In this document: positions 5,856-61,667 of the stretch, in pieces | Layout: each line of letters starts with the position of its first letter | Position numbering within the stretch: the stretch's first letter is position 1 | Sequence record: PZ295659.1 | Length of the DNA stretch: 64,000 bases | From: a phage | Reading direction: 5' to 3' (one strand) | Position numbers and translations under genes: made by a program | The notes under the pieces: generated by a model | Databases searched by the model: none | What the model saw: the letters and a program-made list of their open reading frames with translations, nothing else | What the model was told of the DNA's origin: nothing

Positions 5856-7020
5856 CGAAATCTTCCATTTCGTCAAGGTCGTTTTCTATATCTGCTGCAG
5901 ACGGAGCATCAGAAGTTTTAACCGGAACTTTAGTTGTTGCTTTGCAATTAATAAGGTCGTTAACAGCGTCATCAACTTCTTTAATAGAAGAGATAGCACC
6001 TAGTTTATATTTAGTTTCAATTGCATCTCGGAAAGGTTTGTGTTTAAACAACGGTCCCCAGAATTCTACACAATCAGTAGCTTTAGCACGCCATGATTTT
6101 TCTTCACGAATCATTTCACCTGTTTCTTCGTCAAGGAATTCACGAGCATACCAACCAGCTTTAGGCTTAACTACAAAACCAATTTCAGTTGCCATTTCTA
6201 ACAAGCCACTGAATGGGTCAATACCACCATCAAAATTAACTGTGATCGGAAAAGTAGATTTCTCTTTAACCGTACGAGATTTTTCTGCTTTCAACGTGAA
6301 GTCATAACCGGTCAATTCTGTACCTTCTTTAACCTGACGTTTAGAGATAAAGAATACAGTGTTAGCAGAGTAAAGAATACCTGTACCACCACCCATAATC
6401 TCTTTAGGATACAATCCGCCAATTTCCATTGCGGTATGGTTAATTGCAACACACGGAATATCTTTAATAGTCAGATACGGGGTCACAATGCGGAACAGAG
6501 ATTTAAGTGCCTTAGCACGAGACATATCACCTACAACTTTCTCGTTCAATGCATCTTCGGTTTCTTTCTTAGATGCAGTATTACCGATTGAATCGATAAA
6601 GATAATAACTTTATCACCGCGTTCAATCGCGTCAAGCTGATTAGTCATATCAACTTTAAGTTGTTCGACAGATTGAATCGGAGTATGAACTACACGGTCT
6701 AAATCAACACCCATTGAACGAAAATAAGATTCTGAAGCACCAAATTCTGAATCATAGAACAAACAAATTGCATCTTTATATTTCTTCATATATGCTGCAA
6801 CCATGGTCAGACCAAACAACGTTTTAAAGTGTTTAGAAGGAGCAGCAAAAATAGTTAAGCCTGATTGCAACCCGGCATTCAGTGCACCACCTAATGCAAT
6901 ATTCAACATCGGAATACGAGTAGGGACTTCATCACGATTATTAAACAGCTTAGACTTAGTCAAGTCTGCAGTCATTTTAGAAGTAGAAGCTTTAATCAGA
7001 CGAGATTTTAAATCAGACAT
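5848..7020 (-). CDS. uvsX: UvsX RecA-like recombinase
   Basis: 390 aa, MSDLKSRLIKASTSK... RecA fold motifs, colinear with T4 UvsX. Confidence 0.95.
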   Translation of the reverse strand: MSDLKSRLIKASTSKMTADLTKSKLFNNRDEVPTRIPMLNIALGGALNAGLQSGLTIFAAPSKHFKTLFGLTMVAAYMKKYKDAICLFYDSEFGASESYFRSMGVDLDRVVHTPIQSVEQLKVDMTNQLDAIERGDKVIIFIDSIGNTASKKETEDALNEKVVGDMSRAKALKSLFRIVTPYLTIKDIPCVAINHTAMEIGGLYPKEIMGGGTGILYSANTVFFISKRQVKEGTELTGYDFTLKAEKSRTVKEKSTFPITVNFDGGIDPFSGLLEMATEIGFVVKPKAGWYAREFLDEETGEMIREEKSWRAKATDCVEFWGPLFKHKPFRDAIETKYKLGAISSIKEVDDAVNDLINCKATTKVPVKTSDAPSAADIENDLDEMEDFDE

Positions 7021-7120
7021 TGTATTTTTTCCATAGGCATCATTATATTTTACTCATGTTTAAAAGATAAGACGATTATATACTAAGGGTTATACAGCAT
7101 TTAAAACTTTAAACAGGCTC

Positions 7121-7669
7121 TTAACGAGCCCATTTGATAATTTCTGTAATCAAATTATTACGTTCGCTTGCATTAAATCCTATAACTTTGTTAGCACCAT
7201 CATGATTAAGTAATTGATACGTTTGGATTTCGTTATGAATTGCAAACTCTTCAAAATATGAAATGACTGTATTAAAACCGAACGAAGACAAAGTAATAAG
7301 GTCGTCTTCAAAACTTTCAGTCATTTCGTTACGTGTTAAAATAATTGTGAACACATCATGGTTTTGGCAAAGACGAACATAATCCTGTTCATAAACGTCA
7401 AGAACCGAGTCCGCATCTTGTCGAATACGTCCATAAACCCAGTTACTAATATATCCACGGTCTAACAGATAAATCTTAGTAGGGTCTAAATAATTCAACA
7501 TCGTTTCGAAACAGCCAACTTCATTTCGAGACTTAACATCGAAACGTCCATCAACTGTTCGTTTAGGGAAATCAATCTTTACATATCTTTCGCTAATTTC
7601 CATTATGTCATTAATGAAAGTTGTTTTACCAGCATTATCCGGGCCATCTACTAAAATAATTTTAGCCAT
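7121..7669 (-). CDS. P-loop nucleoside-monophosphate-kinase-like protein (Tmk-like)
   Basis: 182 aa; Walker A ILVDGPDNAGKTT and LLDRGYIS (DRY-like) motif of thymidylate-kinase-type kinases. Confidence 0.6.
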   Translation of the reverse strand: MAKIILVDGPDNAGKTTFINDIMEISERYVKIDFPKRTVDGRFDVKSRNEVGCFETMLNYLDPTKIYLLDRGYISNWVYGRIRQDADSVLDVYEQDYVRLCQNHDVFTIILTRNEMTESFEDDLITLSSFGFNTVISYFEEFAIHNEIQTYQLLNHDGANKVIGFNASERNNLITEIIKWAR

Positions 7670-7670
7670 T

Positions 7671-8570
7671 TTATTCCTCGATTACGACATCTTCATATTT
7701 AGGTATATTATACGGCGAAGAAATTAAAGCATTAAAGTAGATGAACTCACCAAGACCTGGATGGAATACTTCTTCAGGATTTTCGAAATATTGAATCTTC
7801 GGTCGTCCTTTAAGAATTTGATAGTACTCAGTTTTAGTTGGGTTAAAAATTCGAATCAGCGCTTCTTCAGGATACTTATTTCTGTCGAAGCTATTATTTG
7901 GATCGGTTATATAAAGCGGTTGGCCTAATTGAATTGCACATTCAACCACTTGTTCAAAACGATAACACGGGTCACTAATTCGAAATGGATGAAAAATACC
8001 ATCTAGATGAATAGGAGCCAAATCACCTACAAGACGCTGCATGATGGAAGGACGTATAACTTTCTGCGTTACGATAATCTTATTACCATCTGCACCTGCG
8101 TTAACCAGCACTTCTTTTTGACGTTCATTCAACACAGTAGTTTGAAGTGAACGATTAACCGACAACATGTCGGTTTTTAAGAATTCGTCAATATAAAAAC
8201 GTGGTTTATTAGGGTCCGCAGTGATATTGAAATTGAATTCCACATCAAAAGCGCCGTCATATCCAGTGATATCTGTGATTAGAAAATCACAATCATAATA
8301 AGCAATTAATGAATCAACCACAAATTCATTTTCAGACCAGAAATATTTACGAGTGTTATATGCGTTATCTTTATACCATAATGGAACAAACTTAAATTCT
8401 GGGAAAAGACGTTCACATTCTTTAATATCAGATGCATTACGTGGATATGTAATCACATCACCCGGATTAGCACGGTGCAAATGAAGTTGGAAGTTGCCAT
8501 CCTTAAGGATAGCATACTGTCCAGTTTCATAAGACCGCATACTCAAGATAGGTACGCGGAAAATAGCCAT
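7671..8570 (-). CDS. hypothetical protein; candidate DNA glycosyl(arabinosyl)transferase
   Basis: 299-aa ORF at the position T4 uses for beta-gt, no clear T4 bgt similarity; HPGLGEF region faintly GT-B-like. Confidence 0.5.
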   Translation of the reverse strand: MAIFRVPILSMRSYETGQYAILKDGNFQLHLHRANPGDVITYPRNASDIKECERLFPEFKFVPLWYKDNAYNTRKYFWSENEFVVDSLIAYYDCDFLITDITGYDGAFDVEFNFNITADPNKPRFYIDEFLKTDMLSVNRSLQTTVLNERQKEVLVNAGADGNKIIVTQKVIRPSIMQRLVGDLAPIHLDGIFHPFRISDPCYRFEQVVECAIQLGQPLYITDPNNSFDRNKYPEEALIRIFNPTKTEYYQILKGRPKIQYFENPEEVFHPGLGEFIYFNALISSPYNIPKYEDVVIEE

Positions 8571-9286
8571 TAGTCAAGGAATCCTTTAACATAATCAAAA
8601 TCACGTTCAAACACATGGGCACTTACCATGGTATGAGTATAATCACCAACTTCTACACCACATTCGTTAGCGATATAATGAAGTAATTTTCCTTGGAGAT
8701 AAAAATCCAACTGCATAACAACAGCACAGTTCTGAGAACGCATATGACAGTGGGTATAAAGCTTACCATCACGAATATAATAAGTCACTGAGTCAGTACA
8801 TGGATATTCAAGTGTTTCGTCCGAATCAAGCAAAGCCTGATCTGAACTTTCTAGAATTTGGAACACAACTCTTCGGGAGTTAGGCTTCTCTTTAAGTTCT
8901 TTTAGAAGAGCTGGTAATTGAGCCGCAATGCGAGGACCGTAGAAAGTGTTGAAGTTTGCAGGCAAAGCGTCTGATTTAGGTTTAGAAATAAATTTAGCGA
9001 CATTAGGATATGCCTTAAATGCTTCTTCTGCATCAGTACCACCAGAAATCATAAACTTCCAGAAGTCTTCGGCATATTCATAAGAGATGCGATTAATACG
9101 TGGATCGGTCATTTTGAATGATGAAGGGGTATCAACAACTACTGTCATAGACCCAATTTCATTACAACGTCCAATACGAGAATCAGTAACGAACTGTGGA
9201 TTTTCTAAAATTTCACGATTAACAGCTTTAAATGCGGATTGAAAATCTGCGGCTTTAATATATTTCATTGTGTTATGTTTTCCCAT
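8570..9286 (-). CDS. 42: deoxypyrimidine (dCMP) hydroxymethylase, thymidylate-synthase family
   Basis: NSRRVV, catalytic YPCTDSVTYYIRDGKL, MRSQNCAVVMQLDFY, ECGVEVGDYTHTMVSAHVFERDF align with TS/gp42 core; Asp rather than TS Asn in the pyrimidine-recognition position. Confidence 0.75.
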   Translation of the reverse strand: MGKHNTMKYIKAADFQSAFKAVNREILENPQFVTDSRIGRCNEIGSMTVVVDTPSSFKMTDPRINRISYEYAEDFWKFMISGGTDAEEAFKAYPNVAKFISKPKSDALPANFNTFYGPRIAAQLPALLKELKEKPNSRRVVFQILESSDQALLDSDETLEYPCTDSVTYYIRDGKLYTHCHMRSQNCAVVMQLDFYLQGKLLHYIANECGVEVGDYTHTMVSAHVFERDFDYVKGFLD

Positions 9287-9302
9287 GTTTACCTCAATAC
9301 AG

Positions 9303-9330
9303 TTATTATATACTCAATTCATAAAGCTTA
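9303..9330 (-). promoter_or_regulatory. possible MotA-dependent middle promoter upstream of gene 42
   Basis: Minus strand AAGCTTTA (MotA-box-like) followed ~12 bp later by TATAAT. Confidence 0.35.
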
Positions 9331-9406
9331 TTTGAATTTCTTAGCAATGTTGATATAACGTAAAGCTTCAGCATCGATACTTCCAAGAACACTATGAAGA
9401 AATGCA

Positions 9407-9568
9407 TCAGCGTAGTATTCTAGTTGAACAGGTTTCTTTAATCACTTTAGCCGCTTTAGTTTCAAACAGGCCCATAAGGGCCTTTTTAAGAATTTGTTCG
9501 TTGCTGTTAATTTTCGTAGTCAAAATCTCTTCATTAAGTTGGTGGTTAAAAGTTTTTCTAGAAATCAT
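9407..9568 (-). CDS. micro-ORF (53 aa) translationally coupled to upstream gene
   Basis: ATG overlaps stop of 386-aa gene (ATGA), GAGGT SD; MISRKTFNHQLNEEILTTKINSNEQILKKALMGLFETKAAKVIKETCSTRILR. Confidence 0.35.
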   Translation of the reverse strand: MISRKTFNHQLNEEILTTKINSNEQILKKALMGLFETKAAKVIKETCSTRILR

Positions 9569-10725
9569 TCCGGGTACCTCAAAGCGTCGTCAGAGTTAGT
9601 TATATCAATAATAGATATAGAGTTTTCTGCTAACCCATTTTTAGATAACTGACGTTTATAATATCTTTCACAATATGTACACGTCGTCCCGCAGATTTCA
9701 TTAGCACAATCGAAATCTGGATGTCTGAACCACCTTTTTTCTAAAAAGCCATCTAACAAAGAGGTTTCAATATTTACCGTATGTGAAAACTCGGTCTCAT
9801 TTTCAAGAGTGAAAATAGTCTCTAAAGGCTTCCACAATTCCAACAAATTACCTTCAAATTTTTCAGAAGCATAAGCTTCAAGAACTTTCAAAATGTAGTC
9901 TGTGCTACCTGTACGTCCTGAAACTTTGAATTGAGTGATACCAATATCATTATAAAGTTTCAAATCTTGAGGACGAACAAAACGAGTTCTCAACCAGTTA
10001 AATGGGTCTGTATCACGAGCTTTAATACAGTGTTGCATTGGATAGCCATTTAAGGATTTGGCATCATCTACTGTAACGTCGGTGCTATGGAAAATATAGC
10101 AAGAGTCACGATAGCTACAATGTGTTGTATACCCTTTACCAGCATTAGAACAGAACTCATTTACAAGAACTTCAAATATTATATTGTTCTTATTGCAAAA
10201 CTCTGCTGCACGCTTCAGGAAAGAAACTGAACGGTTCTTATGAATTCCACAGCAGACCTTTTTGATATTATATTGGTCATGCAAGTATTTGATTTGAGTT
10301 ACAGCATCGACATGTAGAATTGTTGAAACTTCAATCTCAATGTCTTTATTAACTTCACGAACAATTTCCATAACAACAGGGTTAGCGATAGTAATACGCC
10401 ATACGCCTATTGACCAAAGATACTGAACATAATCCTGAATAGCTTTCTTCTTCCACTCAACTAGTTCTCTTTTTGAACCAGGATTTATCGTGTTGAGTGT
10501 ATAGTTAAAGCAAATACCTAATTCGTTACAACGTTTAACATAATCTTCTAACATCTTTTTGTCAACGTCAGGAAGCCTAAAATCAGGTCTGGCTGCTACA
10601 AAAGCCATTTCTCTTGTAGAGCCGTATACTTCATTTATCAAGCTATTAGGATAAGTTTTATTGAGCTCTACGATTTTATCAAGAAGAGCTAAATCAAAAT
10701 TCGTTCCGATTTTAAAAGTATTCAT
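9565..10725 (-). CDS. Cys-rich enzyme of unknown function (U32-like layout, C-terminal CX4CX3CX2C cluster)
   Basis: 386 aa; N-terminal region resembles peptidase-U32-type TIM-barrel proteins; C-terminal CANEICGTTCTYC; several central Cys. Confidence 0.5.
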   Translation of the reverse strand: MNTFKIGTNFDLALLDKIVELNKTYPNSLINEVYGSTREMAFVAARPDFRLPDVDKKMLEDYVKRCNELGICFNYTLNTINPGSKRELVEWKKKAIQDYVQYLWSIGVWRITIANPVVMEIVREVNKDIEIEVSTILHVDAVTQIKYLHDQYNIKKVCCGIHKNRSVSFLKRAAEFCNKNNIIFEVLVNEFCSNAGKGYTTHCSYRDSCYIFHSTDVTVDDAKSLNGYPMQHCIKARDTDPFNWLRTRFVRPQDLKLYNDIGITQFKVSGRTGSTDYILKVLEAYASEKFEGNLLELWKPLETIFTLENETEFSHTVNIETSLLDGFLEKRWFRHPDFDCANEICGTTCTYCERYYKRQLSKNGLAENSISIIDITNSDDALRYPE

Positions 10726-10779: not shown

Positions 10780-11181
10780 TTATAGATTCGGTTTATATGA
10801 TTTAAATGTTTCGAATTCGCCTTTATTCATAAGAGCTTTGAATTCGTCAGGACGCATAGCTTTGTCGTCGATAATCCAATCATATACTGGTTTATGTGTT
10901 AGCAAATTATGGTACTTCAAGCCAATGTTTGCCAAGTTCTGAATCAGACTTGGGAGAATGTCAATTGCTATACGACCAGGACCTACTGACTTCATACCGC
11001 GAGCAGTGTAAAGCGTTATTGTATGCCCTGCATCATACAGGGCATTAATGGCAGACACCATTTCGACGTCTGGTTTGAAGTTCACGTAATCACGATTGTT
11101 ATTCCACTCGGTTATACAATCATCGACATCAAAACAAAGATTAAGCATGTTTTCTACACGGTGCATTAGATTCGTTCCCAT
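10780..11181 (-). CDS. HAD-superfamily phosphatase-like protein
   Basis: 133 aa; motif I FDVDDCIT, motif II LYTAR, motif IV IIDDK. Confidence 0.6.
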   Translation of the reverse strand: MGTNLMHRVENMLNLCFDVDDCITEWNNNRDYVNFKPDVEMVSAINALYDAGHTITLYTARGMKSVGPGRIAIDILPSLIQNLANIGLKYHNLLTHKPVYDWIIDDKAMRPDEFKALMNKGEFETFKSYKPNL

Positions 11182-12851
11182 TGATGAGTGATATCGCCAC
11201 CGATTGGACGATAGGAAACACCAGTTTCTTTATCAGTTAGTACCCATTTACCAGGATTTTTTGTAATCAGAGTAGCCGTTACAGGTTCTGCTACGTCATA
11301 ACTAATAGAGCCGTCTTGAAGTACACGGCCCATGTTACGTAATTGCTTAGTCAGAAGTTCCATACCTTTATAATATGCGGCTACCGCTTTAAGTGGATTA
11401 TTCTTGAAATAACCACCTAATGCAATCCAGATAATTGCTACAGCCAAATGATGATACTCGTTAAACGAACTCATCTTTCCATATTTGTAAACTAATGGAT
11501 TGATGTTAATAGTCACATTACAAGTTGTTTCATCAATAGTAAACTGACCCCAGGTCGGATTAGCGTTGAATTCATCATAACCTGAAACAGCGTAAAGCAC
11601 TTTAGCTTCATCATACAATTTTGGCCCGTAAATCTTGGTTTCACCAAAATATCCACGAGGGTCGATAAACTTGACTTCACCATTATCAGTAATCATAGTA
11701 TTACTGAAGTTCGGGTCACCATGAATAACAGAGTACTGTCCCTGAGAACGGTTATGATAACGAATAAGGTGTTCTAAAGCTTGTTTCAACATTGGCTTCA
11801 GACGTCCAATCTTAGTGTAGTTCACATGTGTGATTTTACCAAATGAATCAATCAATGGTTGAATACTTTCACAACGATCAATAACTTTCGTATAGAATTC
11901 TTTAGTGAAATCACGACGAACAGTTTCAGGACTTACAAAATAAGTGTCTGTGCTGAATTTCAGTGCATCTAAAATTGCATCAACAATTTGTGGACGAGCA
12001 AGACTCGATTTGGATTTAATATATTCAAATGCCGGCTTACCTTTAATGCGTTCCATTTCAAAGTTATTTTCATTAACAGAAACTAACTGAGGAACTGAAT
12101 CTGATTTCACTTTAAGATACCATGAAATCTCATCTTTCTGAAGAGCTCGACCCTGTTCGGTTAATGCGAATTTAGTTACAGTTTCTTCACCAATTTCAAC
12201 TGCATTAAAACTACGATTAAGTTCACGAACTTCATGAGCTTTTTCAAGTTTAGGCATATCACCTAAATCAATTAGATTCATAAGCTCTGATTTATTGAAT
12301 GCGCTGCCGTAAAGGAATTCTACGAAATCACGCCCTTTGCAGTATTCATGAATTTCCTCATCAGTAGAACCCATATAGAATTCCCAGTCTTTGAACTGAT
12401 AAATTCCTACAACATTACCACCTGTTGAACCTACGTTAGTGATATTTTCACCGTCGAAATTATATCGACATTCGTCACCCTTAACATAGATTGCGTTAAC
12501 ATTCCAAGACCATGAACCAAAATCAGGAATAATATCGCACCAGTTAACAATTACATTATGGCTGTCTAAATCTTTGTGTAATTTAGCAAGAGCATAAGCA
12601 GAACCATACGCTTCATCAACTGTACGAATAGTCACATTGAACCCTTCTTGCTCACAATAAGCTCGAACAGTTTCAGCAAATTTTGAATGAACTACTACAA
12701 TAATTTCATCTGCGCCAAGGTCAGAATAAATTGTATACAAATTGCTCAGAATAGTGTCTTGTTTATAGTTAACAAGCACCTTAGGAATATGATGCGTTAT
12801 TGGATACAAACGAGTTGCCAGTCCAGCACCAAGAATAACAGCTTTTTTCAT
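11166..12851 (-). CDS. bifunctional sugar-1-phosphate nucleotidyltransferase / APH-family anomeric sugar kinase
   Basis: 561 aa; N-terminal VILGAGLATRLYPIT (G-x-G-T-R-L NTase motif); C-terminal VIHGDPNFSN...KFIDPRG (Brenner motif and DxG of choline/aminoglycoside kinase fold). Confidence 0.8.
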   Translation of the reverse strand: MKKAVILGAGLATRLYPITHHIPKVLVNYKQDTILSNLYTIYSDLGADEIIVVVHSKFAETVRAYCEQEGFNVTIRTVDEAYGSAYALAKLHKDLDSHNVIVNWCDIIPDFGSWSWNVNAIYVKGDECRYNFDGENITNVGSTGGNVVGIYQFKDWEFYMGSTDEEIHEYCKGRDFVEFLYGSAFNKSELMNLIDLGDMPKLEKAHEVRELNRSFNAVEIGEETVTKFALTEQGRALQKDEISWYLKVKSDSVPQLVSVNENNFEMERIKGKPAFEYIKSKSSLARPQIVDAILDALKFSTDTYFVSPETVRRDFTKEFYTKVIDRCESIQPLIDSFGKITHVNYTKIGRLKPMLKQALEHLIRYHNRSQGQYSVIHGDPNFSNTMITDNGEVKFIDPRGYFGETKIYGPKLYDEAKVLYAVSGYDEFNANPTWGQFTIDETTCNVTININPLVYKYGKMSSFNEYHHLAVAIIWIALGGYFKNNPLKAVAAYYKGMELLTKQLRNMGRVLQDGSISYDVAEPVTATLITKNPGKWVLTDKETGVSYRPIGGDITHQWERI

Positions 12852-12892: not shown

Positions 12893-13036
12893 CTAGTTAA
12901 AGCATTCATACTTTGCTTGTAGTCCAATCATAATCCATCCGATTACAAGTGTTGGAATCATTACTGGAGCCGTTAAGCTCCAGTAGATAGTCATGACAAG
13001 CATCAATAGTAAAAGTCCTATTGTTATTGCTTTCAT
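12893..13036 (-). CDS. micro-ORF encoding 47-aa hydrophobic peptide
   Basis: ATG overlaps stop of SIS gene (ATGA); MKAITIGLLLLMLVMTIYWSLTAPVMIPTLVIGWIMIGLQAKYECFN; followed by GAGGA SD of NTase/kinase gene. Confidence 0.4.
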   Translation of the reverse strand: MKAITIGLLLLMLVMTIYWSLTAPVMIPTLVIGWIMIGLQAKYECFN

Positions 13037-13668
13037 TGTTCGCCTCGTAACATGGCACCTAGTGCACCGCCAGGGTGGAACTTAAGGAAGTCATTAGAGG
13101 TAAATCCACGTTCAGACGAAAGGTTGATAGCAAACGTATCGATAAGCGCTAACAACAATGTAGTGGACATGGTCGGAGCCAGAGAATTCTCATCAACCTC
13201 TACTGCGATGCCTGTACAGAACGTATAATCAAAAAGAGCTTCATATTCTTGTGGAATGTCTGGGTTACAATGCAACAGAATCTGTTTGACGTTCGGACGA
13301 ATCATTTTAAGATGCTTAGCCACGCCTATCATTTCTTCAGTTTTACCAGAACGACTAATATGAATCAACACATCATTAGGCGCAATGAATCCTGCATCAC
13401 CGTGAGAATAATGCCCGGTGTTCAAGTACATACTAGGGATACCGAGTGAAGCAAATGTTTCAGAAGCTTTAGTTGCAATATTAGCATTCTTACCAACACC
13501 TGTAATAATTACTCGGCTTTCATAATTACTAAGCCCTGGGCGTCGAAGAGTTTCTAGAATAGCATTATAACGAGCAGGGTTTTGACTAATTACTTTGGCC
13601 ATAGCGGCCAAAGAAGAAGCTTGTTTTATGATTGCGTCAATAGCGATAGTAATAGGAGTAGTTTTCAT
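13033..13668 (-). CDS. D-arabinose-5-phosphate isomerase (KdsD/GutQ-like, SIS domain only)
   Basis: 211 aa; IITGVGKNANIATKASETFASLGIPSMYLNTGHYSHGDAG parallels KdsD GMGKSGHIG.K.AATFASTGTPSFF.HPGEASHGDLG. Confidence 0.8.
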   Translation of the reverse strand: MKTTPITIAIDAIIKQASSLAAMAKVISQNPARYNAILETLRRPGLSNYESRVIITGVGKNANIATKASETFASLGIPSMYLNTGHYSHGDAGFIAPNDVLIHISRSGKTEEMIGVAKHLKMIRPNVKQILLHCNPDIPQEYEALFDYTFCTGIAVEVDENSLAPTMSTTLLLALIDTFAINLSSERGFTSNDFLKFHPGGALGAMLRGEQ

Positions 13669-60932: not shown

Positions 60933-61667
60933 TTACCTTAAGATTTTTTCAATTTTAGAATAAAGCTCTTCTAAAGAGCCGTCGTTTGTAATAACTAAGT
61001 CGCCTTCTTCAATAGGCAACCCAGCTTCTGTAATATGTTTATCAGTGGATTCAGTACCAGAGCGAACCACATGAATAACTGTAGCACCCATCGCTCTAGC
61101 GGTTTCCATTTCATGGACTTGGCGTGTATCGGTCACAACGTAGTAATCGAAATCACTTCCAATATAATCCATATAGTTTAATGCAAAAAGCTTAACCCAA
61201 TACATACGGTCAAATAAATTAACGACAACATCCGTACCGAGGGCTTGCATAAGACGGCGGATTGACCACGTGTCGTTGATATTATTTATAGCTTCACGCA
61301 GGGCTTCATACGGTTTAATATCTAGATATGAATATCCACCTTCTAGTGATGATAATACGTTAACACCATTAATTGGCAGGTATTGTCGCTGTAAATAAAT
61401 TAGCGTTTCTTCCATTAATTCAATAACATCCAATTTATTGAGATTTAATGGTGTTTCACGGTCGTATCCAATGCCTTCAAAGTATTCATATTTCAACTCG
61501 GTGAATACATCAGGGTTTTCGGCATGTTTACGCTCCCAAGCTATTGCTAGAGCGTCTTTAATTGGATATGCTAATTGATATTTTATGGATTTAAAGTTTG
61601 AATTGATGTAATCAGCAGTAGTGTCTTTACCACTACGTTTGATGCCGCTTAAAAAGATTAGCTCCAT
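60933..61667 (-). CDS. 1: deoxynucleoside monophosphate kinase gp1
   Basis: MELIFLSGIKRSGKDTTADYINS...DRMYWVKLFALNY...AMGATVIHVVR colinear with T4 gp1. Confidence 0.95.
   Translation of the reverse strand: MELIFLSGIKRSGKDTTADYINSNFKSIKYQLAYPIKDALAIAWERKHAENPDVFTELKYEYFEGIGYDRETPLNLNKLDVIELMEETLIYLQRQYLPINGVNVLSSLEGGYSYLDIKPYEALREAINNINDTWSIRRLMQALGTDVVVNLFDRMYWVKLFALNYMDYIGSDFDYYVVTDTRQVHEMETARAMGATVIHVVRSGTESTDKHITEAGLPIEEGDLVITNDGSLEELYSKIEKILR

Follow-up and report, generated by a model that had tools for sequence, protein, structure and literature searches.

A thymidylate-kinase-like protein in the arabinosyl-5-hydroxycytosine operon of an RB69-like phage and its tentative assignment as a pathway-dedicated nucleotide kinase

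Why should a phage that already encodes a general deoxynucleoside monophosphate (dNMP) kinase, gp1, keep a second small kinase inside its DNA-modification operon? The question is raised by a gene in phage record PZ295659.1, of which we analyzed a stretch of 64,000 nucleotides (the window). The gene lies on the minus strand at positions 7121 to 7669 and encodes a predicted P-loop kinase with the fold of thymidylate kinase (Tmk). A preliminary description made from the DNA sequence had recognized both kinases. Its view that a second, Tmk-like enzyme sits in the modification operon is backed by fold, motifs, synteny and co-occurrence, and gp1 is present where it was placed (Table 1). Between positions 7000 and 13000 the DNA is 97.9-98.6% identical to the Mosigvirus phages PHB12, F2, RB69, HY126 and Bas46/ChristianSchoenbein, and the window is that of an RB69-like Mosigvirus.

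By orthology and synteny, the operon matches the published RB69 gp45-gp55 / Afh cluster for arabinosyl-5-hydroxycytosine. RB69 DNA contains mono- and di-arabinosylated 5-hydroxycytosine (5hoC) in ether linkage (Lee et al., NAR 2026, PMC13326640), and the earlier assignment of arabinosyl-hydroxymethylcytosine has been declared erroneous (AEM 2026 Durham paper). The ThyA homologue in the operon had been described as a hydroxymethylase. Instead, it is a 5-hydroxy-dCMP (5hodCMP) synthase, 99.2% identical to RB69 gp48, whose type is the flavin/O2-dependent 5hodCMP synthase (PMC13326640), and it matches the solved HY126 enzyme (PDB 9iqc/9ir2/9iqu, E=6e-163). Nor is it the kinase's immediate neighbor, as a glycosyltransferase (GT) gene, GT1 (7671-8570), intervenes. 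The existence of the kinase gene is not new, since publications of 2026 already list it as a putative nucleotide kinase: RB69p045, DLP3_078 and RL38J1_214 are entered as 'nucleotide kinase' in a fold-match table (PMC13326640). Our analysis adds constraints on what it does, namely synteny and co-occurrence statistics, a distant homologue in Pootjesviridae, and fusions to an MBD4-type glycosylase domain.

From these data we conclude that the kinase clearly belongs to the DNA-modification system. Our favored reading, which we hold tentatively and at a little under an even chance, is that it is a divergent, pathway-dedicated dNMP kinase for 5hodCMP in the 5hoC module, overlapping gp1. Support comes from its Tmk-type acceptor motifs, from the association of its family with the base branch of the pathway, and from the gp1-like acidity of the stand-alone members; the substrate and the direction of flux are what we infer. 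The earlier proposal of a kinase for a hydroxymethyl-dNMP thus stands in one respect, that a modified dNMP is the best-supported substrate. The nucleotide, however, is 5hodCMP, which RB69 gp1 is already known to convert.

Because it is conserved across 344 phage records, with identities of 44-99%, the kinase open reading frame (ORF) is a real gene. RB69 ORF045c (NP_861735) shares 180 of its 182 residues (99%) and DLP3 gp78 is 46% identical; we found nothing that sets the window protein apart from these two, whose published 'nucleotide kinase' label was given by fold only. Homologues are labeled 'hypothetical protein', 'putative thymidylate kinase' or 'thymidylate kinase' in the databases. Among isolated phages, the distribution of the kinase follows that of the synthase closely, with 344 records for the former and 376 for ThyA homologues of the 5hodCMP-synthase type. 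Kinase and synthase counts are equal in Escherichia (177/177), Acinetobacter (57/57), Shigella (15/15), Enterobacter (9/9), Serratia (9/9), Proteus (7/7) and Yersinia (6/6) phages and nearly so in those of Klebsiella (25/26), while 22 Rhizobium phages make up the main surplus of synthase records. No Tequatrovirus appears among the kinase matches listed or the named genera. The family is small: only 45 clusters reached E<=1e-10 when 1.84 billion representative proteins were searched exhaustively with its profile.

In every case the kinase gene lies within the modification cluster, although its position inside the cluster varies. The order synthase-GT1-kinase is found in RB69-like phages, DLP3 and four divergent metagenomic T4-like contigs, and in Dhakavirus JS10 and Klebsiella phages the kinase directly follows the HAD phosphatase. 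In the window, the GT1 stop codon (7671-7673) and the kinase ATG (7667-7669) are set apart by 1 nt. The kinase start is also coupled to or overlapping GT1 in DLP3, where the overlap is 13 nt, and in contigs L009, L011 and L012.

A similar arrangement occurs in Pootjesviridae, which carry hexosylated 5hoC and in which a dNMP kinase gene is followed by those for dCTPase, synthase, GT and a 212-residue protein. This last protein (RL38J1_214 / RHph_N34 gp137) is acidic, occupies the same synthase-GT-kinase place, and is accompanied by a separate dNMP kinase. It shares the motifs GxDxxGK (GLDRTGKDT) and FPK(Q)T (FPKQT) with the kinase family, but the relationship is distant, with an hhalign probability of 74%, a hidden Markov model (HMM) E value of 0.005, and AR in place of DR. 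Its best PDB match is dCK 4jlm (PMC13326640). The gene annotated as dNMP kinase in Pootjesviridae is unrelated to the family. Outside these groups, the 225-kb non-T4 Tenacibaculum phage PTm1 encodes a ThyA homologue (6977-7654 in contig L014) that bears HMRSNN...LDMY, the signature of a 5hodCMP synthase, and adjoins a guanylyltransferase and a histidine phosphatase. No kinase-family member or obvious GT was found within 7 kb of it, and one candidate, ORF-170, was ruled out at a probability of 0.2%.

The family also occurs in a second architecture. Eight metagenomic representatives of 314-357 residues have an N-terminal kinase followed by a C-terminal domain whose profile is that of the MBD4 glycosylase domain end to end (HhH-GPD; E=4e-20), and the catalytic Asp of its GKYxxDSY motif is invariant. 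Three non-T4 contigs place such fusions in context. In L006 the order is dCMP deaminase, dUTPase/DCD, ThyA homologue, fusion, FMN reductase, SIS isomerase and a 624-residue protein; in L007 and L008 it is ThyA homologue, a 199-residue ORF, fusion, GT4 glycosyltransferase, radical-SAM protein, PolA, dCMP deaminase and ThyX. All three ThyA homologues show the 5hodCMP-synthase signature, MRSNN (D169N) and YD (N177D), which the dUMP hydroxymethylase of phage M6 does not have. Because the flanks of L007 and L008 (~6-10 kb) contain none of the arabinose-synthesis genes (SIS, NTP-transferase or HAD), it is the base branch, not the sugar branch, to which the kinase is tied. L006, by contrast, includes the SIS and 624-residue genes. 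In unrelated lineages of phages, the kinase family therefore goes together with a GT and the synthase for 5hoC. The FMN-reductase-family gene of L006 (11068-11613) directly follows the fusion and lies downstream of the ThyA homologue by two genes, a position that fits the need of a 5hodCMP synthase for reduced flavin.

Fusions of this kind were seen neither in IMG/VR viral contigs, in two scans, nor at full length in any isolated phage record, and an HMM of the MBD4-like domain had no match in the six frames of the window. The papers that we read contain no description of a kinase::MBD4 fusion in 5hoC clusters.

The residues conserved in the family point to a nucleotide acceptor. We aligned 34 sequences, MBD4 fusions included. 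The Walker A and DRY-like motifs noted in the preliminary description are both borne out. The first reads GPDNAGKT, with G9, G14 and K15 invariant and D/E11 present in 34/34 sequences. The second, D70-R71-G72, falls within LLDRGYISNWVY and has Gly, not Tyr, as its third residue; D70, R71 and Y79 are invariant and S/T75 is found in every sequence. This motif aligns to ILDRYVASNAAY of Mycobacterium tuberculosis Tmk and to DRYVYSGVAY of yeast Tmk, and its DR-S-Y spacing is identical to that in the M. tuberculosis, yeast and Escherichia coli enzymes. In Tmks, these landmark residues touch the acceptor deoxynucleotide at its 3'-OH, 5'-phosphate, pyrimidine edge and 2' position. The lid region, by contrast with canonical Tmk lids, which contain Arg, reads TRNEMTESFEDDLI with R113 as its sole Arg. 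Here the family has its own motif, xDD(L/K)I, with D122 in 34/34 members and D123 and R113 each in 30/34, and we found no Tmk counterpart of this combination. Thymine O4 is read by Arg74 in M. tuberculosis Tmk; the aligned position in the kinase is Leu58, so that this reader has no Arg counterpart.

A confident AlphaFold2 model built from a 20-sequence alignment (pLDDT 88, pTM 0.84) gives the kinase the NMP-kinase/Tmk three-dimensional fold. Among predicted viral structures, the closest is a family member from Pseudomonas phage PspYZU05 (TM 0.91), followed by Tmks at ~0.6. Sequence comparisons place the family near Tmk from a greater distance. In comparisons with Tmk sequences, hhalign gave the family probabilities of 93% against the human enzyme, 79% against that of E. 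coli and 70% against that of M. tuberculosis, the last match taking in the DR-SN-Y block (DRYVASNAAY in M. tuberculosis). Matches to PF02223 below threshold were obtained for 13 of 20 family members (best E=2e-4), and PHROG 761 was the only good library match of the kinase. A PDB search with the single protein returned generic P-loop matches only, and the PDB holds no solved structure of the kinase family or of GT1. We conclude that the kinase probably acts like a Tmk-type dNMP kinase, yet stands outside the curated Tmk family. Its motif set resembles that of type I/mycobacterial-like enzymes (vaccinia A48R, yeast, human and M. tuberculosis), but it is tied genomically to cytosine modification, not to dTTP synthesis.

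A further likeness is to T4 gp1 (1dek), which is the kinase for hydroxymethyl-dCMP in T4 and, as its homologue, for 5hodCMP in RB69. Both proteins are phage-encoded and acidic, and the step proposed for the kinase, modified dCMP to dCDP, is the same, although we found no homology between the window kinase and 1dek by sequence or structure. All stand-alone family members are acidic (pI 4.65-5.83), the window kinase at pI 4.7 and gp1 at 4.75, as against 8.66 for M6 gp54, a DNA kinase considered below.

Taken together, these features suggest how the kinase could work. A dCTPase and the ThyA-like synthase would produce 5hodCMP, and the deoxynucleotide would be held in a Tmk-type acceptor site through contacts of D11 with the 3'-OH, of R71 with the 5'-phosphate, of S75/N76 with the pyrimidine edge and of Y79 with the 2' position. 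The kinase, through K15/T16 and D70, would then transfer the ATP gamma-phosphate to give the diphosphate, which host Ndk would convert to the triphosphate for the phage polymerase. The kinase is probably the native enzyme of a mobile synthase-GT1-kinase cassette that T4-like phages gained when they already had gp1. A role as riboflavin/FMN kinase was also considered and dropped, the fold being Tmk-like and FMN supplied by the host.

Several observations weigh against a dedicated 5hodCMP kinase. The gp1 homologue of RB69, gp159, turns 5hodCMP into 5hodCDP, and the synthase together with gp1 is enough to place unglycosylated 5hodC in E. coli DNA (PMC13326640); because gp1 already performs this step, a plain 5hodCMP kinase would be redundant. 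Straboviridae and Pootjesviridae nonetheless both retain a general dNMP kinase beside the cluster kinase that follows the first GT. The published record on this enzyme has also shifted. In a June 2025 preprint (bioRxiv 10.1101/2025.06.16.659550), the legend of Figure 3 names RB69 gp45 and DLP3 gp78 as the co-expressed 'cognate dNMP kinases', whereas in the final paper the kinases co-expressed and assayed, in both legend and methods, are the gp1 homologues gp159 and gp169 (PMC13326640). We found no assay or deletion of this kinase in the papers that we read. Assignment to Tmk is itself imperfect, with scores far below the family thresholds: against TIGR00041 (dTMP kinase) the kinase scores 15.6 bits where the cut-off is 83.25, over the P-loop only, and Pfam gives it no PF02223 match, only AAA matches below threshold. 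It has neither the P-loop Arg of type I Tmks, with N12 at that position, nor the Arg-rich lid of type II, where the invariant Asp-Asp stands instead, and FPK is kept in the stand-alone kinases but not in the MBD4 fusions. Finally, fusion to a DNA glycosylase domain could indicate a role at the level of DNA.

The redundancy with gp1 is what a different substrate would explain. If GT1 arabinosylated 5hodCMP, the kinase could convert the bulky Araf-O5-dCMP, beyond the reach of gp1, into its diphosphate; the polymerase would insert mono-arabinosylated dCTP, and later arabinoses would be added on DNA. This scheme accounts for a second dNMP kinase beside gp1 in two phage families, whose retention of both hints at a non-redundant task for the cluster kinase. 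The gene order synthase, GT1, kinase would then be the order of the reactions, and the translational coupling of the kinase to GT1, at a junction that is tight or overlapping, would be accounted for as well, but in JS10 and the Klebsiella phages the kinase lies away from GT1. Individual GTs were inactive on 5hoC DNA with either UDP-arabinofuranose (UDP-Araf) or UDP-arabinopyranose (UDP-Arap), and the data of Lee et al. do not separate arabinosylation of the mononucleotide from that of DNA; they do show that synthase and gp1 alone yield unglycosylated 5hodC in E. coli DNA, which counts the other way (PMC13326640). GT charge offers a weak hint, as the T4-like GT1 proteins have pI values of 4.7-5.1, compared to 9.05 for T4 beta-GT and 7.2 for the DNA-acting DLP3 gp76, yet it is not uniform (8.3 for the L010 GT and 5.7 for DLP3 gp77). 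The invariant Asp-Asp of the lid could bind sugar hydroxyls. To our knowledge, all phage DNA glycosylation described so far is post-replicative, following the T4 paradigm, and on balance we regard phosphorylation of an arabinosylated mononucleotide as unlikely.

The fusions raise the alternative that the kinase works on DNA, as an ATP-using partner of GT1, as a nucleobase kinase on duplex 5hoC, or as an accessory that spends ATP to present the base. All eight carry a complete MBD4-type HhH-GPD domain, the three on contigs L006-L008 lie in clusters with a synthase of 5hoC signature, and pyrimidines opposite G, the setting in which 5hoC is found, are flipped by MBD4; the in vitro inactivity of GT1 alone on 5hoC DNA (PMC13326640) would also fit. 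A model exists in the 5-HMUDK enzymes (M6 gp54 and ViI gp67; PMC8989533), which are likewise small P-loop kinases encoded in pyrimidine-hypermodification clusters near a ThyA homologue, and both groups have members fused or adjacent to HhH/glycosylase-fold proteins. The hhalign match of the family to M6 gp54, a validated DNA kinase, reaches 81% (E=1e-5). However, it covers only 82 columns of the N-terminal half, and is no better than the matches to Tmks, and M6 gp54 has EG where the family has its invariant DR; net charge is opposite as well (pI 4.7 vs 8.7). The preliminary description had suggested just such an action on hydroxymethyl groups in DNA, which the pathway argues against: it contains no such group, no dUMP hydroxymethylase and no aGPT-Pplase or AADT. 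Indeed, none of the six cluster ORFs scanned against Pfam matched aGPT-Pplase, and the domain fused to the family is MBD4-like instead.

Other observations also speak against a role on DNA. Stand-alone kinases are acidic throughout and have no DNA-binding domain, they carry nucleotide-site motifs, and the window has no homologue of the MBD4-like domain. On chemical grounds, a phosphorylated aromatic 5-OH would be no useful leaving group for O-glycosylation, and no phosphorylated base has been reported for virion DNA (PMC13326640; AEM 2026). The fusion may merely join a nucleotide kinase to a neighboring repair glycosylase for 5hoU:G or U:G. We therefore consider action on DNA quite improbable.

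Equally improbable, in our judgment, is an ordinary Tmk, or a canonical dNMP or deoxynucleoside kinase, that raises precursor pools without any link to modification. The 'thymidylate kinase' annotations and the best fold matches, which are Tmks, agree with it, and auxiliary Tmk genes are common in phages and can be dispensable, as with PCH45 gp50 in a phage Tn-seq preprint (which does not report whether Bas46 or LC53 genes are essential). Such an enzyme, however, would leave unexplained the roughly 1:1 co-occurrence with the 5hoC synthase and the constant location in the modification cluster; the kinase also fails the Tmk family thresholds, has Leu58 in place of the thymine-O4-reading Arg, and would duplicate gp1 and host Tmk, which already serve dTMP.

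A place in the sugar branch, with the kinase acting on arabinose phosphate or returning UDP/UMP toward UTP for UDP-Araf, is very unlikely. The GT reaction does set UDP free, and JS10 and Klebsiella phages put the kinase directly after the sugar-branch HAD phosphatase, but the family conserves the motifs of the Tmk-type deoxyribose and phosphate sites, L007 and L008 keep kinase, synthase and GT although the flanks read hold no genes for arabinose synthesis, and in Pootjesviridae, whose sugars are galactose and glucose, the distant homologue comes after the GT. The preliminary description had offered the small kinase the role of sugar kinase, but in this pathway that role belongs to the C-terminal domain of the AfhE homologue at 11166-12851, arabinose-5-phosphate kinase activity having been assigned experimentally to AfhE (PMC13326640).

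Table 1. Features of the kinase gene, its operon and the fusion proteins. Coordinates refer to the window unless a contig is named.
Feature	Position	Strand	Basis and remarks
182-residue Tmk-fold P-loop kinase (predicted)	7121..7669	-	ATG-initiated ORF; orthologue of RB69 ORF045c/RB69p045, DLP3 gp78 and bas46_0140
P-loop (Walker A) G9-P-D11-N-A-G14-K15-T16	7622..7645	-	Acidic third residue Tmk-typical; aligns to vaccinia, yeast, human and M. tuberculosis Tmk
F34-P35-K36-R37-T38, counterpart of Tmk FP(E/Q/R)R	7556..7570	-	HMM alignment to vaccinia/yeast Tmk; hhalign to human/M. tuberculosis Tmk
D70-R71-x3-S75-N76-x2-Y79	7433..7462	-	Spacing of Tmk dNMP-site motif DRYxxS(N)xxY; family and Tmk alignments
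R113 and family-specific acidic motif F120-E-D122-D123-L-I125, lid region	7295..7333	-	Family alignment
Kinase ribosome-binding site GAGG	7676..7679	-	6 nt upstream of ORF, within last GT1 codons; read from sequence
Hairpin GGCTC-GTTAA-GAGCC and T-rich run	7116..7130	-	Spans kinase stop codon; read from sequence
GT1, putative first (alpha) arabinosyltransferase, 299 residues	7671..8570	-	PHROG 3891, E=1.5e-155; RB69 gp46:47, DLP3 gp79; PMC13326640 Table 1
5-hydroxy-dCMP synthase, ThyA homologue	8570..9286	-	Pfam Thymidylat_synt; RSQN (D169N) and LD (N177D) signature
Peptidase-U32-family protein (RB69 gp50), 386 residues	9565..10725	-	Pfam PF01136, E=6e-11; NCBIfam UbiU, E=5e-4
HAD phosphatase (AfhF/RB69 gp51 homologue)	10780..11181	-	TIGR01689, E=4e-13; role from PMC13326640
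Bifunctional sugar-1-P nucleotidyltransferase and APH-like kinase, 561 residues (AfhE/RB69 gp52:53)	11166..12851	-	Pfam NTP_transferase
Arabinose-5-phosphate isomerase homologue (RB69 gp55)	13033..13668	-	ORF; syntenic with bas46_0148 and RB69ORF055c
gp1 dNMP kinase (RB69 gp159 homologue)	60933..61667	-	E=2.5e-91 to T4 1dek
Kinase::MBD4 fusions	L006 10001-11074; L007 6205-7173; L008 2233-3201		Proteins P0059, P0069; non-T4 metagenomic phage contigs
Further fusion proteins			P0060, P0065, P0067, P0074, P0076, P0116

The 3' end of the kinase gene carries a hairpin that is possibly a weak terminator ahead of uvsX. A consensus terminator scan did not flag it, and the homologous gene in OL960577 has a 'terminator' annotated below it.

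Among the neighboring genes, the AfhE homologue shows weak APH and fructosamine-kinase matches at residues 344-409. Both it and GT1 are unsplit in the window, at 561 and 299 residues, while the RB69 record splits them into ORF052c/053c and ORF046c/047c; because both ORFs are intact here, our data support the published attribution of the RB69 splits to errors in sequencing. The U32 gene and the synthase flank a small ORF (9329-9568, minus strand) that is the equivalent of RB69ORF049c/bas46_0143 (79 residues) but runs out of frame. It is Bas46-like, with one substitution, to residue 45 ('VIKE'), followed by 8 differing residues and a stop at 53 residues. The frame break reflects either a genuine indel or a mistake in the sequencing.

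The U32 proteins RlhA, TrhP and UbiU/V are O2-independent hydroxylases that produce 5-hydroxycytidine or 5-hydroxyuridine in rRNA and tRNA, or that hydroxylate precursors of ubiquinone. The U32-family gene of the window could thus provide a way of making 5-hydroxycytosine anaerobically. The JS10 cluster (L003) lacks this gene, and the corresponding cluster protein has been termed a 'sugar or heterocycle reductase' (PMC13326640). Two of the divergent contigs hold further faint matches. In L011, which is T4-like, a gene resembling T4 endonuclease IV (denB) lies between the synthase and GT1 (6217-6915). In L010 (8877-11743), an intein-splicing match falls in a 307-residue gene (8877-9800) located two genes upstream of a 207-residue gene that matches only the C-terminal domain of UvsX.

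The arabinosyl-5-hydroxycytosine pathway was resolved only in 2025-2026, and the kinase is its one universally conserved part with only a putative function. If it is only a second 5hodCMP kinase, it records a mobile synthase-GT-kinase cassette grafted onto T4-like genomes that already bore gp1. Were its substrate a glycosylated nucleotide or DNA, the accepted post-replicative order of phage DNA glycosylation would change, and the kinase would be a useful enzyme for making sugar-modified dNTPs. The kinase::MBD4 fusions suggest that a dedicated activity for excising bases is a further need of 5hoC phages. Should glycosylation prove to be pre-replicative, the fused MBD4-type glycosylase would police the DNA for unglycosylated 5hoC or 5hoU opposite G.

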